A stretch of DNA of 64,000 nucleotides from Coprobacillus sp. (GCA_036639875.1 JAVWHX010000001.1:87155-151154); one strand, 5' to 3'. Shown: positions 49,131 through 55,119, numbered from the stretch's first letter. Program-made: numbers and translations. The notes: generated from the letters alone by a model not told the origin.

Positions 49131-49823
49131 TTATTTCATTTCATCTAAATCATCAACATTGTTATATAACAAAATATTTTTATCTTGGTTTATTAACACA
49201 CCATTTTTTAAATCAATTTTATAATCAGCACATGTTGCTTCCAATGTATCCGTTATTATTTTATTTGTTGTTATTTTTTTTGTTTTCGACTCATATAAAA
49301 CAAATGCCTTTGAATTCATATTTACATAAATACTTGAGAATGCATCTAACTGCTTTTGTTCTCCATTAATTGTAATCTGAGTTTTCTCTAAAAATATATA
49401 TGTTGATTCTCCATCATATAAAAATCCAAGATCACTTACTATTTTATTATCATTAAAAATCCCTTCTTGTTGAGAAGCAAAAACAGAAAAATGATTAGCT
49501 CTAAAATATTGTTTTGATCTTGCGTTGACATAAATCATATCTTTTGGTAAAACAATACTATTTGATGATTCCAAATAGAGTGGCATTGCACTTAATGTCA
49601 CATTACTTGTGCATCTTCCTTCACATGTTTTTTCTTTATCATAATAAAGTTCTGTTCCTTTTTTATAAGAAATGATTGTTCCAGCTCCAGGTTGAGTAGC
49701 TGTCTCTTTTAAAGTGAAAGTTGAACTATCATTTAAAAAGAAATAAAGCGCTGCTGCCATAACCAAAAATATAAAGCTTGCTATTATTGCATAAATAAAC
49801 GATTCTTTTTTCTTAAGTTTCAT
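49131..49823 (-). CDS. bitopic membrane protein carrying only the shared juxtamembrane domain
   Basis: 230 aa. N-terminal anchor FIYAIIASFIFLVMAAALYFFL and a QITINGEQKQLD motif. GGAGGT RBS. 4-nt overlap with the upstream gene. Confidence 0.75.
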   Translation of the reverse strand: MKLKKKESFIYAIIASFIFLVMAAALYFFLNDSSTFTLKETATQPGAGTIISYKKGTELYYDKEKTCEGRCTSNVTLSAMPLYLESSNSIVLPKDMIYVNARSKQYFRANHFSVFASQQEGIFNDNKIVSDLGFLYDGESTYIFLEKTQITINGEQKQLDAFSSIYVNMNSKAFVLYESKTKKITTNKIITDTLEATCADYKIDLKNGVLINQDKNILLYNNVDDLDEMK

Positions 49824-50323
49824 ACTTTCTTACCTCCATTTACCAAAAAATATAATTCATACAAAAATAAATATATGGAATACATTGTTATACATATTCC
49901 TGTTAAAATATAAACAACGAGAAACATCATTGGTGTATGCATGATAATCATATATTGAAATATCATGTTGTTAATGATAAGTGCCACAGCACATAACAAT
50001 ATATTAATTGCTACATAAACAAACATCTTTAAATGTTCTATAAATACCAAACATAAAATCGCCTGACATATATAAAACATGACATGAACAGCATTAAGAG
50101 ATTGGAAACGAAAAACAGAACTGATTATAAAACACATAAAAGAAAAACAGCTTATAAGTTCCAATCTTGCTTTTGTATTTAACATCATCAATAGATGTTT
50201 CCATATATATATTTTTTCATTTTTCTTAGATAAAATGACAATTGTATAAGTACATAATACAAGTAAGATAGAAACAACTATATATTCTTTTAATTGTGCA
50301 ATATTATTAATCAGTTCTTGCAT
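49820..50323 (-). CDS. small polytopic membrane protein (4-5 TM), unknown family, last gene of the ATPase cassette
   Basis: 167 aa and very hydrophobic. Overlaps the epsilon-like gene by 17 nt and the next gene by 4 nt. I could not recognise an a-subunit LRLxxN-type motif. Confidence 0.7.
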   Translation of the reverse strand: MQELINNIAQLKEYIVVSILLVLCTYTIVILSKKNEKIYIWKHLLMMLNTKARLELISCFSFMCFIISSVFRFQSLNAVHVMFYICQAILCLVFIEHLKMFVYVAINILLCAVALIINNMIFQYMIIMHTPMMFLVVYILTGICITMYSIYLFLYELYFLVNGGKKV

Positions 50324-50657
50324 TTCGTCTCAGTCTCCTTTCTTTTTTCTTGACAGGTTCTTCTACACTTTCAGTAACTTCTTTCACTTCTTCTAATGGA
50401 AGCTGAAATTGTCCTTTTTCAATAAATCTAAACTCATTACTTCTTAGTAAGTAAAATCCATCCACATGATCCAATATCAATTCCTCATCCCCAATAACAG
50501 TCAGTGAACCATTAATTTTACCAATACATGGAGCATGATCTTCCATAATCAATAATCCGAAATTTTTATCCTTTACTCGAATACATTTGACATTATCAAT
50601 TTTCTTAACTCCCTTTTCAAAGGAGCACATTGAAAATTTAAGAGAACTTTCACTCAT
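50307..50657 (-). CDS. F1 epsilon-like subunit (beta-sandwich domain only)
   Basis: [27 protein letters not shown]...VDGFYLL parallels the canonical epsilon GELGILPGHAPLLT...V.GGF pattern. The C-terminal helical hairpin is replaced by a charged tail. 4-nt overlap with the beta gene. Confidence 0.65.
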
Positions 50658-52006
50658 GATAAAGCTCCTATAAAGCTAAAACTGTCTTCATCTATTTCAT
50701 CATGTATACCATTTAAAATGGCTTCAACATCATTTAATACATCACCTATTTTCACAAATGCTCCAGGTATTCCTGTATAATTTTCTGCTACAAAGAATGG
50801 TTGAGTAAAGTAATTACGGATTTTTCTTGAACGATTAAAGATATCTTTATCATCTTGACTTAATTCTTCAATTCCTAAAACTGCAATAATTTCCTCCAAC
50901 TCTTCATATCTAGACAAGTAGGCAATGACTTTTTGTACTAATGCATAATGTCTTTCACCTATACGATCTATGTCAATCAACTTACTTGTTGTTTGAAAAA
51001 CATCAATTGCTGGATAGATTCCTTTCTCCGCAACCTTTCTACTTAATACGATTTGTCCATCCATATGTGATGAAATCGTTTGAACTGCACTATCTGTCAA
51101 ATCATCAGCAGGGATATAAATAGCTTGAAAGCTCGTTATACTACCTTCACCAGTTGAATTAATTCGTTCTTCTATTTCTGAAACATCTTCCTCTATCGTT
51201 GAAGGATATCCATTTTCAATTGGCATATTATGTAATTCAGCATTGATTTCACTCATTGCTTGAACATAACGATAAATATTATCTATAAACAACAATACAT
51301 CTTGTTTCTTTTCATCTCTTAAATATTCAGCAATGGTTAAACCCGAAAAGACTGCTTTACTTCTAGATGTTGGATTTTCACCCATTTGTCCAAAGACAAT
51401 AGCCATTTTATCTAACAAATCAGCTTCTTTCATTTCATCATATAACTCTTTACCTTCTCTACTTCTTTCACCTATTCCAACAAAAACTGAATTTGAATGT
51501 AATCCTTGATAAACATTATGTATTAATTCTTTAATCAACACAGTTTTACCAACCCCAGCACCCCCAAGCAAACCCATCTTATAACCCTTTTGCATTGGTG
51601 CAAAGAAATCTAAAACTTTAATTCCTGTCCACAAGACATCTCCATCAATATCAATTTCTTCAAATCCCATTCGACGTTCGTAAACACTCTTTTCATTCTT
51701 TTCTAGAATTATTGAATCATCAATTAATCTTCCATATGAATCAAACACTTTACCGAGTATTTCATCATTATATTGAATTTGAATTGTATTCTCTTCTAGA
51801 TATACATCTAGCCCTTTTTTTAATCCATCAATACTAGAAAAAGGAATAGCTATTGCGATATCTTCATCTACTTTTTGCACTTCAAACTTTAATTCTCTAT
51901 CTTCTAAGGACGCATATAACACATCACGATATTTCACATTAACATCTCTATCTATTAGTATTCTAATATTTAATTCAGAGATTGATATAATTTTTCCTGC
52001 TCTCAT
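50654..52006 (-). CDS. F1 beta-like catalytic subunit
   Basis: Walker [21 protein letters not shown], catalytic GIGERSREG, Walker [33 protein letters not shown], and a DELSEED-equivalent GIEELSQDD. Confidence 0.9.
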
Positions 52007-54109: not shown

Positions 54110-54121
54110 ACTGCCTCCATT

Positions 54122-54874
54122 CTACAGACTAAAATCATATAATCTGTCTTTATATCTAATTCGATACCCTTCTAATATTTCGCTATCTTTCAATTGTATT
54201 AATTCTTTTGAAGATTCAACAGGATTAACTTCTTTATTTGAATAAATATATATATGTGGATCATTGTTAAAAATATAATCTTTCAAATAACTTATAAACA
54301 AATATAAATCAAATGACTGTTTTTCTTCACAATACTTCTTAAAAATAGTAAATTGGGCTGGAAGAGTTTTTAAAACATCATTTATCACTTCTATTTGTTG
54401 ATTTGAATTAAGGTTCATCAAACCATAATAAACATCTATATCAAATAATGATAAAAGGTCTTCATAATCTTGAACTGAAATAAAGTTCTCTTTTTTTAAT
54501 TCATTAATTGCTTCTAACGATAAATTTAAAGAATTTATTTCAAAATCACATTTCACCATTCTATAATGTTCATCAAAACGATTGTTTTGATAAACGGCCT
54601 GTTTGATAAAACTTTGTTCTCTCTTTTTTTCTTCTTTTTCAATTTTTGTATTTATAATCTCATGAGACGAGATACTGAGTAAGTCGATTTCAGCTTGCTT
54701 TTCTAATAATTCTGCAGTTTTCTTTTCTAATAACTCATCATAAAGATCTGCCATAACAACTCCTACTTTTTTATATATCTGTTGATGAATATCTTGACAT
54801 ATTTTTTTAACAGCAAAAAGTAAGAATGCAGCTAATGATACCATCACTAAAATAACTGCTATAAAACTTATCAT
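54122..54874 (-). CDS. b-like peripheral-stalk protein with unrelated C-terminal globular domain
   Basis: 250 aa. One N-terminal TM helix (ISFIAVILVMVSLAAFLLFAV), an approx 70-aa charged helical segment (ELLEKKTAELLEKQAEIDLL ... EKEEKKREQ), then an approx 140-aa domain of unknown type. Occupies the position of atpF/atpH. Confidence 0.55.
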   Translation of the reverse strand: MISFIAVILVMVSLAAFLLFAVKKICQDIHQQIYKKVGVVMADLYDELLEKKTAELLEKQAEIDLLSISSHEIINTKIEKEEKKREQSFIKQAVYQNNRFDEHYRMVKCDFEINSLNLSLEAINELKKENFISVQDYEDLLSLFDIDVYYGLMNLNSNQQIEVINDVLKTLPAQFTIFKKYCEEKQSFDLYLFISYLKDYIFNNDPHIYIYSNKEVNPVESSKELIQLKDSEILEGYRIRYKDRLYDFSL

Positions 54875-55119
54875 TAGCTAATTAAAGGATTAAAGAAAAG
54901 TAACAAGAATACAAATCCAAACAAAAGTAATAATAATACAGTAATAATAATAGCAATTATCATAACACTTTGAATAACATCGCTTTTTGTTTCAGGGTTT
55001 CTTCCTACTGCTTCCGCTGTCTTTGCCCCAGTTAACCCTAAACAAATGCCTACACCTAAAAACGCAAGCCCTAGCATCCATCCTATCGATTGTACAACCG
55101 ATCCTAAAATCTGTTCCAT
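54874..55119 (-). CDS. F0 c-subunit-like hairpin protein lacking the ion-binding carboxylate
   Basis: 81 aa starting at MEQILG (GAGAGGAAG RBS). Helix 1 is Gly-rich ([22 protein letters not shown]). The loop GRNPE parallels the canonical (A)RQPE. Helix 2 ([25 protein letters not shown]) contains no Asp or Glu. Confidence 0.7.

Follow-up and report, generated by a model that had tools for sequence, protein, structure and literature searches.

The window analysed here is a stretch of 64,000 nucleotides of Coprobacillus sp. DNA (GCA_036639875.1 JAVWHX010000001.1:87155-151154) with a guanine-plus-cytosine (GC) content of about 30%. The host belongs to the Coprobacillaceae within the Erysipelotrichia and is thus one of the walled low-GC Bacillota. 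Between positions 49820 and 55119 the minus strand carries a cassette of seven open reading frames (ORFs) that code, in this order, for a c-like subunit, a 250-residue protein, the α, γ and β subunits of an F1-like ATPase, a 116-residue protein and a 167-residue membrane protein. Neighbouring genes overlap by 4 or 17 nucleotides, share a single base (the c and 250-residue genes) or are separated by gaps of 4-12 nucleotides, and because of these overlaps and very short gaps we consider the cassette genes to be operonic. A terminator scan of the cassette interior gave none that was convincing. An earlier note, made from the sequence of the window alone, had described seven consecutive, translationally coupled genes at this place, flanked by genes for envelope proteins. 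Both descriptions hold: all of the ORFs lie where it had put them, and the flanking genes code for membrane-anchored proteins of 1972, 518, 230 and 489 plus 3091 residues. Cassette and flanking genes together make up an 11-gene locus (Table 1).

The F1 head is readily recognized. The α-like and β-like subunits match PF00006 (ATP-synt_ab) in Pfam with E = 2e-72 and 1e-67, respectively, and the γ-like subunit matches PF00231 with 77.5 bits against a cut-off of 39.9. The β subunit keeps [20 protein letters not shown] and an IEELS loop that resembles DELSEED, and its motifs [15 protein letters not shown] (with the catalytic Glu) and DNIYR are conserved at the 90% level in 32 cassette sequences. 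The P-loop GDKKTGKT and the arginine finger SVSRLGG of the α subunit are kept at the same level across 32 cassette sequences; this subunit also retains its N-terminal helix, while about 70 C-terminal residues are missing. With its catalytic motifs intact, the F1 hexamer is predicted to be catalytically competent.

The cassette subunits were compared with curated NCBIfam equivalog models (score versus cut-off in bits). The α subunit remains below the cut-offs of the atpA models (444 versus 554 and 402 versus 484), and the same is true of γ (51 versus 194) and c (24 versus 44). Only β passes, and narrowly, on TIGR01039 (atpD; 474 versus 463). The α/β models of the N-ATPase (alt_F1F0) are missed by far (369 versus 750 and 416 versus 752). 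Those of the Type 3 (395 versus 570 and 326 versus 520) and Type 2 (399 versus 600 and 391 versus 850) F1-like ATPases of mycoplasmas are also missed, and the evolutionary kinship to these two types that had been thought possible in the earlier note is therefore not borne out at the level of the models.

A reciprocally rooted neighbour-joining tree of α and β (416 columns, 100 bootstraps) was calculated in which canonical F1 is represented by Enterococcus, Staphylococcus, Listeria, Monoglobus, Acetoanaerobium, Subdoligranulum, Fusobacterium and the type 1 ATPase of M. hyorhinis. The cassette α and β subunits form clades of their own with bootstrap values of 91 and 97, and the canonical F1 clades are supported by values of 85 and 100. 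Neither subunit branches inside the housekeeping F1 clades: a grouping of the cassette with F1 has a bootstrap of 0, as has a grouping with the N-ATPase, and a grouping with Type 3 reaches 7 (α) and 25 (β). Mean identities of the cassette α/β subunits are 0.62/0.66 inside the family, 0.38/0.42 to F1, 0.37/0.41 to the N-ATPase and 0.34/0.36 to Type 3. The cassette α and β subunits therefore appear to be a lineage apart from canonical F1.

The c-like ORF reaches position 55155 (93 residues). Its Met13 at 55119 is preceded by the ribosome-binding site (RBS) AGAGGA, and a start at this codon gives a protein of 81 residues, as in the orthologs. The 93-residue form matches PF00137 (ATP-synt_C) with 32.4 bits against a cut-off of 24. 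No other small protein of the locus is conserved as well. The hairpin is kept, helix 1 is still rich in glycine, and the loop GRNPETK, the equivalent of the R-Q/N-P loop that touches γ and ε, does not vary. The position of the ion-binding carboxylate is occupied by Thr in the window copy. Among 63 non-redundant cassette c sequences this column contains Thr (39), Ala (10), Val (6), Met (4), Ser (3) or Asn (1) and in no case Asp or Glu, one of which is present in all five reference c subunits (those of E. coli, PS3 and I. tartaricus, and the fetched ones of Enterococcus and Monoglobus). Where I. tartaricus has the Na+ ligand Q32, the cassette sequences have Leu, Met, Phe or Ile. Both membrane cores are free of acidic residues in 59 of the 63 sequences; in three others helix 1 has a Glu at its outer end. 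Judging from these residues, a ring of cassette c subunits would be unable to carry H+ or Na+. One member, from an uncultured Bacilli metagenome-assembled genome (MAG; L075, c gene at 6321), differs in having an Asp immediately ahead of the canonical carboxylate column; in no other of the 63 sequences does the core of helix 2 contain an acidic residue.

No Pfam family is matched by the 250-, 116- and 167-residue proteins of the window. For the first of these, a single-sequence search returned only the protein itself and a profile search returned 14 relatives. The AlphaFold2 model of this protein, calculated from 14 diverse sequences, has a mean predicted local distance difference test (pLDDT) score of 76, which rises above 90 for residues 140-200. 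In this model the transmembrane (TM) segment runs on as a single long helix (residues 2-78), which is followed by a disordered linker, a helical bundle (residues 99-204) and a small β domain (residues 208-247). When the model is compared with the PDB using Foldseek, the top 35 matches are all δ/OSCP subunits of F-type ATP synthases (146-176 aligned columns; best match E = 3.6e-3, probability 0.99), and the mycobacterial b-δ fusion is among the matches. A profile of the 70-member family aligned by hhalign with six canonical δ subunits gives E = 4.8e-5, compared with 0.09 for b and 0.43 for ε, and the match includes the C-terminal signature D..ICEG.....YDYS of the family versus D..liGG.....v.DgS. 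Because Foldseek and hhalign agree independently, we assign the 250-residue protein as a membrane-anchored δ subunit, contrary to the earlier reading in which the cassette had no δ/OSCP gene. According to the model it is b-like in architecture only, in that it consists of a TM segment that continues into a long helix.

The family of the 116-residue protein aligns with the N-terminal β-sandwich of canonical ε over 68 columns (hhalign E = 0.0016), while the controls δ, b and Type 3 ε give E-values of 0.28-0.48. PF02823 is the sole Pfam family that is matched by more than one of 49 family members (two of 49). The hairpin of helices at the C-terminus is missing, and the members end in short or variable, charged tails. 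The protein is thus probably, with moderate confidence, the N-terminal domain of ε, the subunit proposed in the earlier note.

A gene for a protein of about five TM segments is present at the position of the 167-residue protein in nearly every locus where the site can be examined. The family evolves fast: phmmer found 15 relatives, nearly all query-sized, among 1.84 billion representatives. The window protein has no match in Pfam or NCBIfam, and hhalign detected no profile similarity of the family to subunits a, b or c (E = 0.4 versus a). Members of the family do not share an invariant Arg. Most of them (52 of 75) combine a basic residue in TM2 with an acidic one in TM4, but Phe and Val stand at these sites in the window copy, so that neither residue is essential. 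The idea that this protein is a divergent subunit a carrying the essential Arg was rejected on the basis of the hhalign result, the lack of an invariant Arg and the Phe of the window copy. As neither an atpB-like gene nor atpI occurs elsewhere in the 11-gene locus, the absence of subunit a that had been noted earlier is upheld. Taken together with the loss of the carboxylate in all 63 c sequences and the position of α and β outside the housekeeping F1 clade, this means that the cassette is not an ordinary ion-coupled F1Fo.

In about 17 loci the 5-TM protein and the 230-residue-type protein are encoded by a single ORF of about 400 residues (L011, L017, L023, L024, L028, L030, L036, L040, L041, L043, L044, L047, L066, L068, L070, L073 and L077; at about 12.4-13.7 kb in most of these loci). 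This natural fusion ties the 5-TM protein functionally to the surface proteins.

The four surface proteins, namely the upstream giant, the 518-residue protein, the 230-residue protein and the 489-residue part of the downstream giant, each have an N-terminal TM anchor that is followed by a homologous juxtamembrane domain of about 150 residues. Pairwise hhalign comparisons of the families over this shared domain give E-values from 4e-9 to 5e-5 and probabilities of 67-96%; for the upstream giant against the other three the E-values are 4e-9 to 1.5e-5. In the upstream giant the domain is followed by a G-X-Y tract (residues 271-339), which matches an Scl-like collagen model, and then by immunoglobulin (Ig)/FN3-like repeats. 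In the 518-residue protein it is followed by a (G-G-X)n tract (residues 241-310) and an Ig-like C-terminal part. A G-X-Y tract of about 60 residues directly after the shared domain is found in 41 of 57 orthologs of the upstream giant and in 52 of 59 of the 518-residue protein, and never in the 230-residue family or the downstream giant. An imperfect 9-nucleotide tandem repeat of about 21 copies (55767-55972), which could vary in length between strains, codes for the (G-G-X)n tract of the 518-residue protein.

The downstream giant has both N-terminal and C-terminal TM anchors. Its 489- and 3091-residue ORFs share one reading frame, which is interrupted between them by one TAA at 47644-47646 (...SSNMMKI*DLKLENDSDY...). 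Elsewhere this giant is one ORF (3314-3634 residues), which both parts in the window match. The TAA may represent a nonsense mutation or a phase-variable stop, or else an error in the consensus of a MAG. No enzymatic domain was detected in the surface proteins with Pfam, NCBIfam or PDB sequences; against the PDB sequences the giants matched through the collagen tract only, and the 3091-residue protein found nothing in Pfam or NCBIfam. An AlphaFold2 prediction of the 230-residue protein with the four window paralogs as the alignment gave no confident fold (pLDDT 36).

Table 1. Genes of the locus in the window, with the number of loci in which each protein is matched by BLASTP (twelve window proteins against the ORFs of 84 fetched loci; many of the misses are contig ends).
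Feature	Position	Strand	Basis	Loci matched
Upstream giant surface protein (1972 aa)	56708-62626	-	ORF, PF01391 Collagen, fn3	57/84
518-aa surface protein	55139-56695	-	ORF, TM 8-37, shared domain	59/84
c-like rotor subunit (81 aa from Met13)	54874-55119	-	PF00137, RBS	74/84
Membrane-anchored δ/OSCP-like stator subunit (250 aa)	54122-54874	-	AlphaFold2, Foldseek, hhalign	56/84; by position in 69 non-redundant loci
F1 α-like subunit (438 aa)	52793-54109	-	PF00006, motifs, own clade	84/84
Short F1 γ-like subunit (261 aa)	52003-52788	-	PF00231, aligned with canonical γ	84/84
F1 β-like catalytic subunit (450 aa)	50654-52006	-	PF00006, motifs, own clade	84/84
ε-like subunit (116 aa)	50307-50657	-	hhalign, PF02823 in 2/49 family members	82/84
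167-aa protein, about 5 TM segments, fast-evolving family	49820-50323	-	Topology	four matches only
230-aa surface protein	49131-49823	-	TM anchor and shared juxtamembrane domain only	63/84
Downstream giant surface protein (489 aa + 3091 aa)	38365-49113	-	Split by in-frame TAA	65-68 of 84

The cassette is not the orphan for which it had been taken. A search with the γ subunit gave hundreds of relatives of the same length (249-281 residues for the 120 homologs listed), and a protein of a Coprobacillus sp. MAG matches it with 100% identity. Three contigs that were looked up, from Tannockella kyphosi, from a member of the Clostridiales and from a genome labelled Bifidobacterium sp. LC6, have the same gene order: a giant of about 1900-2500 residues, a protein of about 514-576 residues, c, a protein of about 250 residues, α, γ and β, followed by proteins of about 83-108, 177-275 and 226-356 residues and a giant of more than 3300 residues. 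The upstream giant of Tannockella matches Collagen. When one genome per GTDB species was scanned with two cassette-specific γ peptides, cassette-type γ genes were confirmed in 279 places, and 80 loci were kept. The hosts are mostly Lachnospiraceae, Oscillospiraceae, Peptococcia, Family XIII and unclassified Bacillota, with a few labelled Coriobacteriales, Bifidobacterium colobi or Thermoguttaceae.

Across all 84 fetched loci the layout of giant, about 520 residues, c, 250 residues, α, γ, β, about 100 residues, 5-TM protein, about 230 residues and giant recurs; three Lachnospiraceae variants depart from it. The proposal that an F1-derived ATPase is operonic with surface proteins is thus confirmed by synteny, and its co-occurrence with the two giants holds in most loci, the misses often being contig ends (Table 1). 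Compared with the window copy, the subunits are 60-79% (c), 61-73% (β) and 54-67% (α) identical. The GC content of the loci ranges from 27% to 67%, so that the locus is either old or has spread widely and then adapted to its hosts in composition. From this conservation we consider the locus to be real and under selection.

Several further features of the distribution were observed. The cassette is absent from IMG/VR viral contigs and PLSDB plasmids, and the idea of a mobile element is therefore not supported. Two genome bins contain two separate copies of the whole locus each: a Lachnoclostridium MAG (CALWLW01; L007 and L072) and a Lachnospiraceae MAG (JAEEIH01; L037 and L040). Full loci occur in genomes labelled Actinomycetota or Planctomycetota, with a GC content that fits high-GC hosts: Bifidobacterium colobi LC6 (L004/L005, 59.8% GC), 'Coriobacteriales' MAGs (L025, L038 and L081) and a 'Thermoguttaceae' isolate (L029). 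These are either cases of horizontal transfer out of the Bacillota or mislabelled or contaminated assemblies.

We consider it moderately probable that the cassette encodes an ATP-hydrolysing, F1-derived rotary motor that works outside bioenergetics and exclusively serves a conserved group of surface proteins anchored in the membrane. It would probably power a surface structure rather than make ATP. To our knowledge, rotation of γ is the only mechanical output of an F1 head. Since selection has kept both the rotor ring and the peripheral stalk, the ring is presumably still turned against a membrane-anchored stator, and since there is no ion path, the torque would go to membrane partners. The most likely arrangement is therefore one in which the ring turns against the anchored stator and torque is passed on to neighbouring membrane proteins. 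ATP hydrolysis, as the sole energy source, would turn the γ-ε-c-ring assembly against α3β3-δ(TM). The torque would be spent on the 5-TM protein and on the TM anchors or juxtamembrane domains of the 230-residue protein, the 518-residue protein and the two giants, and the motor would in this way move, tension or assemble a structure on the cell surface. The collagen-like stretches, about 60 residues long, could serve as rods that transmit the motion through the peptidoglycan wall; at a collagen rise of about 0.29 nm per residue, 60 residues correspond to about 17 nm. Possible roles of the surface structure are movement, adhesion and release, or assembly.

Some observations weigh against this picture. 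The TM anchors of the surface proteins are no more conserved than their ectodomains, and the sequences consequently give no sign of a specific intramembrane interface. Rotation, stoichiometry and contacts between the c-ring and the surface anchors are all inferred from sequence. The tree was calculated by neighbour joining only and leaves out Type 2 sequences, and the assignment of ε relies on a modest hhalign E-value (0.0016). Finally, three Lachnospiraceae loci (L034, L035 and L042) have no adjacent c gene. In these three, all from MAGs, a serine recombinase/resolvase-like ORF lies upstream of the 250-residue gene in the position of c, and the giant genes are downstream of the ATPase genes (e.g. 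L034:7033-7662 and 13218-19880); this variant of the locus may be rearranged or invertible.

A more specific and distinctly unlikely version would make the ion-blind c-ring a purely mechanical rotor that turns the TM anchors of trimeric collagen-stalked giants in or against the ring, with the triple helix of about 17 nm serving as a shaft by which rotation powered by ATP is transmitted across the peptidoglycan to a filament on the surface. There is a precedent for part of this: the c-rings of V-ATPases surround proteins that span the membrane once and have large luminal domains (yeast Voa1 and mammalian ATP6AP1/AP2), so that TM helices of large-ectodomain proteins sit inside a rotor ring and turn with it. 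V-ATPase rings, however, still translocate protons, and for surface anchors in the cassette ring the resemblance is one of analogy only. Such a trans-envelope rotary drive, if it exists, would be an unrecognized organelle of motility, adhesion and release, or mucus penetration in walled gut Bacillota.

The closest functional parallels come from mycoplasmas. The Type 2 ATPase (PMC11864180, PMC8406192) is the 'twin motor' (G1-ATPase) of Mycoplasma mobile gliding, which drives the giant surface proteins Gli349 and Gli521; its rotation is proposed to pass via membrane proteins to Gli521 and Gli349 (PMC11864180). The cassette shares with it an F1-derived α/β/γ motor, giant membrane-anchored surface proteins and a presumed non-bioenergetic role. 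GliD of Type 2 is thought to derive from a b-δ fusion and has no TM segment, while its counterpart in the cassette is the TM-anchored δ protein. Type 2 has no c subunit; it has an α subunit without the stalk-binding H1 helix (PMC11864180), a β subunit with a long N-terminal extension and a motor that dimerizes with PGK. In contrast, the cassette keeps a c-ring subunit and the N-terminal helix of α, and its β subunit, which aligns to positions 248-683 of the 705-position Type 2 model, has no such extension. A further difference from Type 2 is that the cassette shares an operon with its surface proteins and is found in walled bacteria.

Type 3 (MSC_0618-0624; PMC3369863, PMC12994834) is likewise a set of seven genes that combines α, β, γ and an ε-like subunit with uncharacterized membrane proteins, is non-bioenergetic and lies next to the surface proteins that it serves. 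It is required for the function of MIB-MIP (PMC12994834). The gene order is different: 12-TM protein, 19 kDa protein, γ, ε, 87 kDa protein, α, β in the Type 3 set. Type 3 has neither c nor δ, and its α, when aligned with that of the cassette, has no N-terminal helix. Its accessory proteins (MSC_0620, MSC_0624 and DUF2714) are unrelated to those of the cassette (hhalign E at least 0.06), and no MIB or MIP is present in the window. Of the analogy to mycoplasma motors drawn in the earlier note, the functional part thus stands, and the part concerning kinship to Type 3 falls with these E-values and the bootstrap values of the tree. The cassette works like Type 2 and Type 3 and is a member of neither. 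By analogy it would be the functional counterpart, in walled Bacillota, of the Type 2 gliding and Type 3 MIB-MIP motors, and it appears to have arisen independently of Type 3.

With canonical F1Fo (atpIBEFHAGDC) the cassette has in common the order of the retained genes, the catalytic residues of α and β, the fold family of γ, the c hairpin with its R-N/Q-P loop, the δ fold and the ε β-sandwich. It differs in lacking a and atpI, in the lost c carboxylate, in a single TM-δ protein that replaces b and δ, in the C-terminally truncated α, in an ε without the helical domain and in its separate clade, with α/β identities of about 38-42%. The N-ATPase (atpDCQRBEFAG), which is known to be supernumerary, is likewise a divergent F-type operon without a separate δ gene. 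It keeps, however, subunit a, an ion-binding c and AtpQ/AtpR, while the cassette has neither AtpQ nor AtpR and another gene order, and the 250-residue protein is not specifically similar to the N-ATPase b subunit (hhalign E = 0.36). The long b subunit of the N-ATPase (about 260 residues; Legionella anisa, L093:5129-5905, and Acaryochloris marina, L094:5104-5895) aligns with canonical b (hhalign E = 1.8e-17), and its C-terminal part aligns with canonical δ (E = 2.3e-5). These operons have no δ gene, and the long b looks like a b-δ fusion.

The alternative that survives best, although we judge it unlikely, is a dedicated export or assembly ATPase of the FliH-FliI-FliJ kind, which would energize the insertion, secretion or wall-crossing of the giants instead of driving them after assembly. 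FliH, FliI and FliJ are homologous to b plus δ, α/β and γ, respectively (bioRxiv 10.1101/2021.01.01.425057, PMC3665681). The 250-residue protein, with its TM segment and helix joined to δ, would fit as a b-δ-like stalk, and the neighbours are very large exported proteins. However, these substrates carry ordinary N-terminal signal-anchors suited to Sec/YidC, and the small 5-TM protein is the only candidate in the locus for a protein-conducting channel. Moreover, FliI/SctN of flagellar and type III secretion systems are homo-hexameric, whereas the cassette has two paralogs, α and β; the hetero-hexamer, the globular domain of γ, ε and the c-ring are torque features that are kept here and are not found in the ATPases of type III secretion. 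The scores agree with this, with 185-216 bits on the FliI/SctN models (cut-offs 380-620) versus 444-474 bits on F1 models.

A developmental appendage, such as spore or exosporium appendages or fibres that connect cells, is very unlikely to be the structure in question in place of a vegetative surface machine. Collagen-like tracts are present in the locus and collagen-like proteins are typical of exosporium naps, and most hosts belong to Clostridia classes that are rich in spore formers. Against this, some of the genomes with the locus are, as far as their labels go, those of Bifidobacterium and Coriobacteriales, groups that form no spores, and no sporulation gene is linked to it within the window. 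This alternative concerns the biological context and is compatible with the motor mechanism.

That the cassette is an ion-translocating F-type ATPase of the host, be it the housekeeping one or an alternative one, with an unusual Fo, or the decaying relic of such an enzyme, is extremely improbable: the order c-(b/δ)-α-γ-β-ε mirrors atpEF(H)AGDC and β lies just above the TIGR01039 cut-off, but this explanation is already contradicted by the loss of the c carboxylate, by the lack of a and atpI in a locus whose 5-TM protein is unrelated to a, by α, γ and c falling under all curated cut-offs, by a clade apart from the canonical F1 of Clostridia, Bacilli and Mycoplasma type 1 and, as regards decay, by the strong conservation of catalytic and interface residues over hosts of 27-67% GC. 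No canonical ATPase was found in a 10-kb extension of the contig.

The cassette is thus best regarded as a candidate rotary motor for surface proteins, and what sets it apart is that its c-ring is ion-blind, its δ is anchored by a TM segment, its cargo is encoded in the same operon, and it is widely distributed among hosts that have a cell wall. F1-like mechanical motors have so far been regarded as a speciality of mycoplasmas, and we found no earlier description of such a cluster outside mycoplasmas in open-access papers and preprints. The locus suggests that the same evolutionary move was made independently in walled Bacillota, including common Lachnospiraceae and Oscillospiraceae of gut and rumen. 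More of the ancestral machine appears to be kept than in the mycoplasma versions, in the form of a c-ring without ion sites and a membrane-anchored δ stalk. It would be a natural experiment on a rotor ring uncoupled from ions and could offer a tractable way of learning how the torque of F1 is passed to surface proteins. It also offers a candidate function for two very large unannotated families of surface proteins of gut bacteria.

Outside the 11 genes the locus is flanked in the window by regulators that are unrelated to it (62664-63873 and 37214-38121). The downstream flank consists of a PadR regulator and its HAAS-domain partner, with a promoter-like site of their own at 38173-38145. On the upstream side there are a GHKL-domain sensor-kinase-like protein of 301 residues and a Cys-rich ORF of 65 residues; this flank is different in Tannockella, where a transposase-like gene is present.

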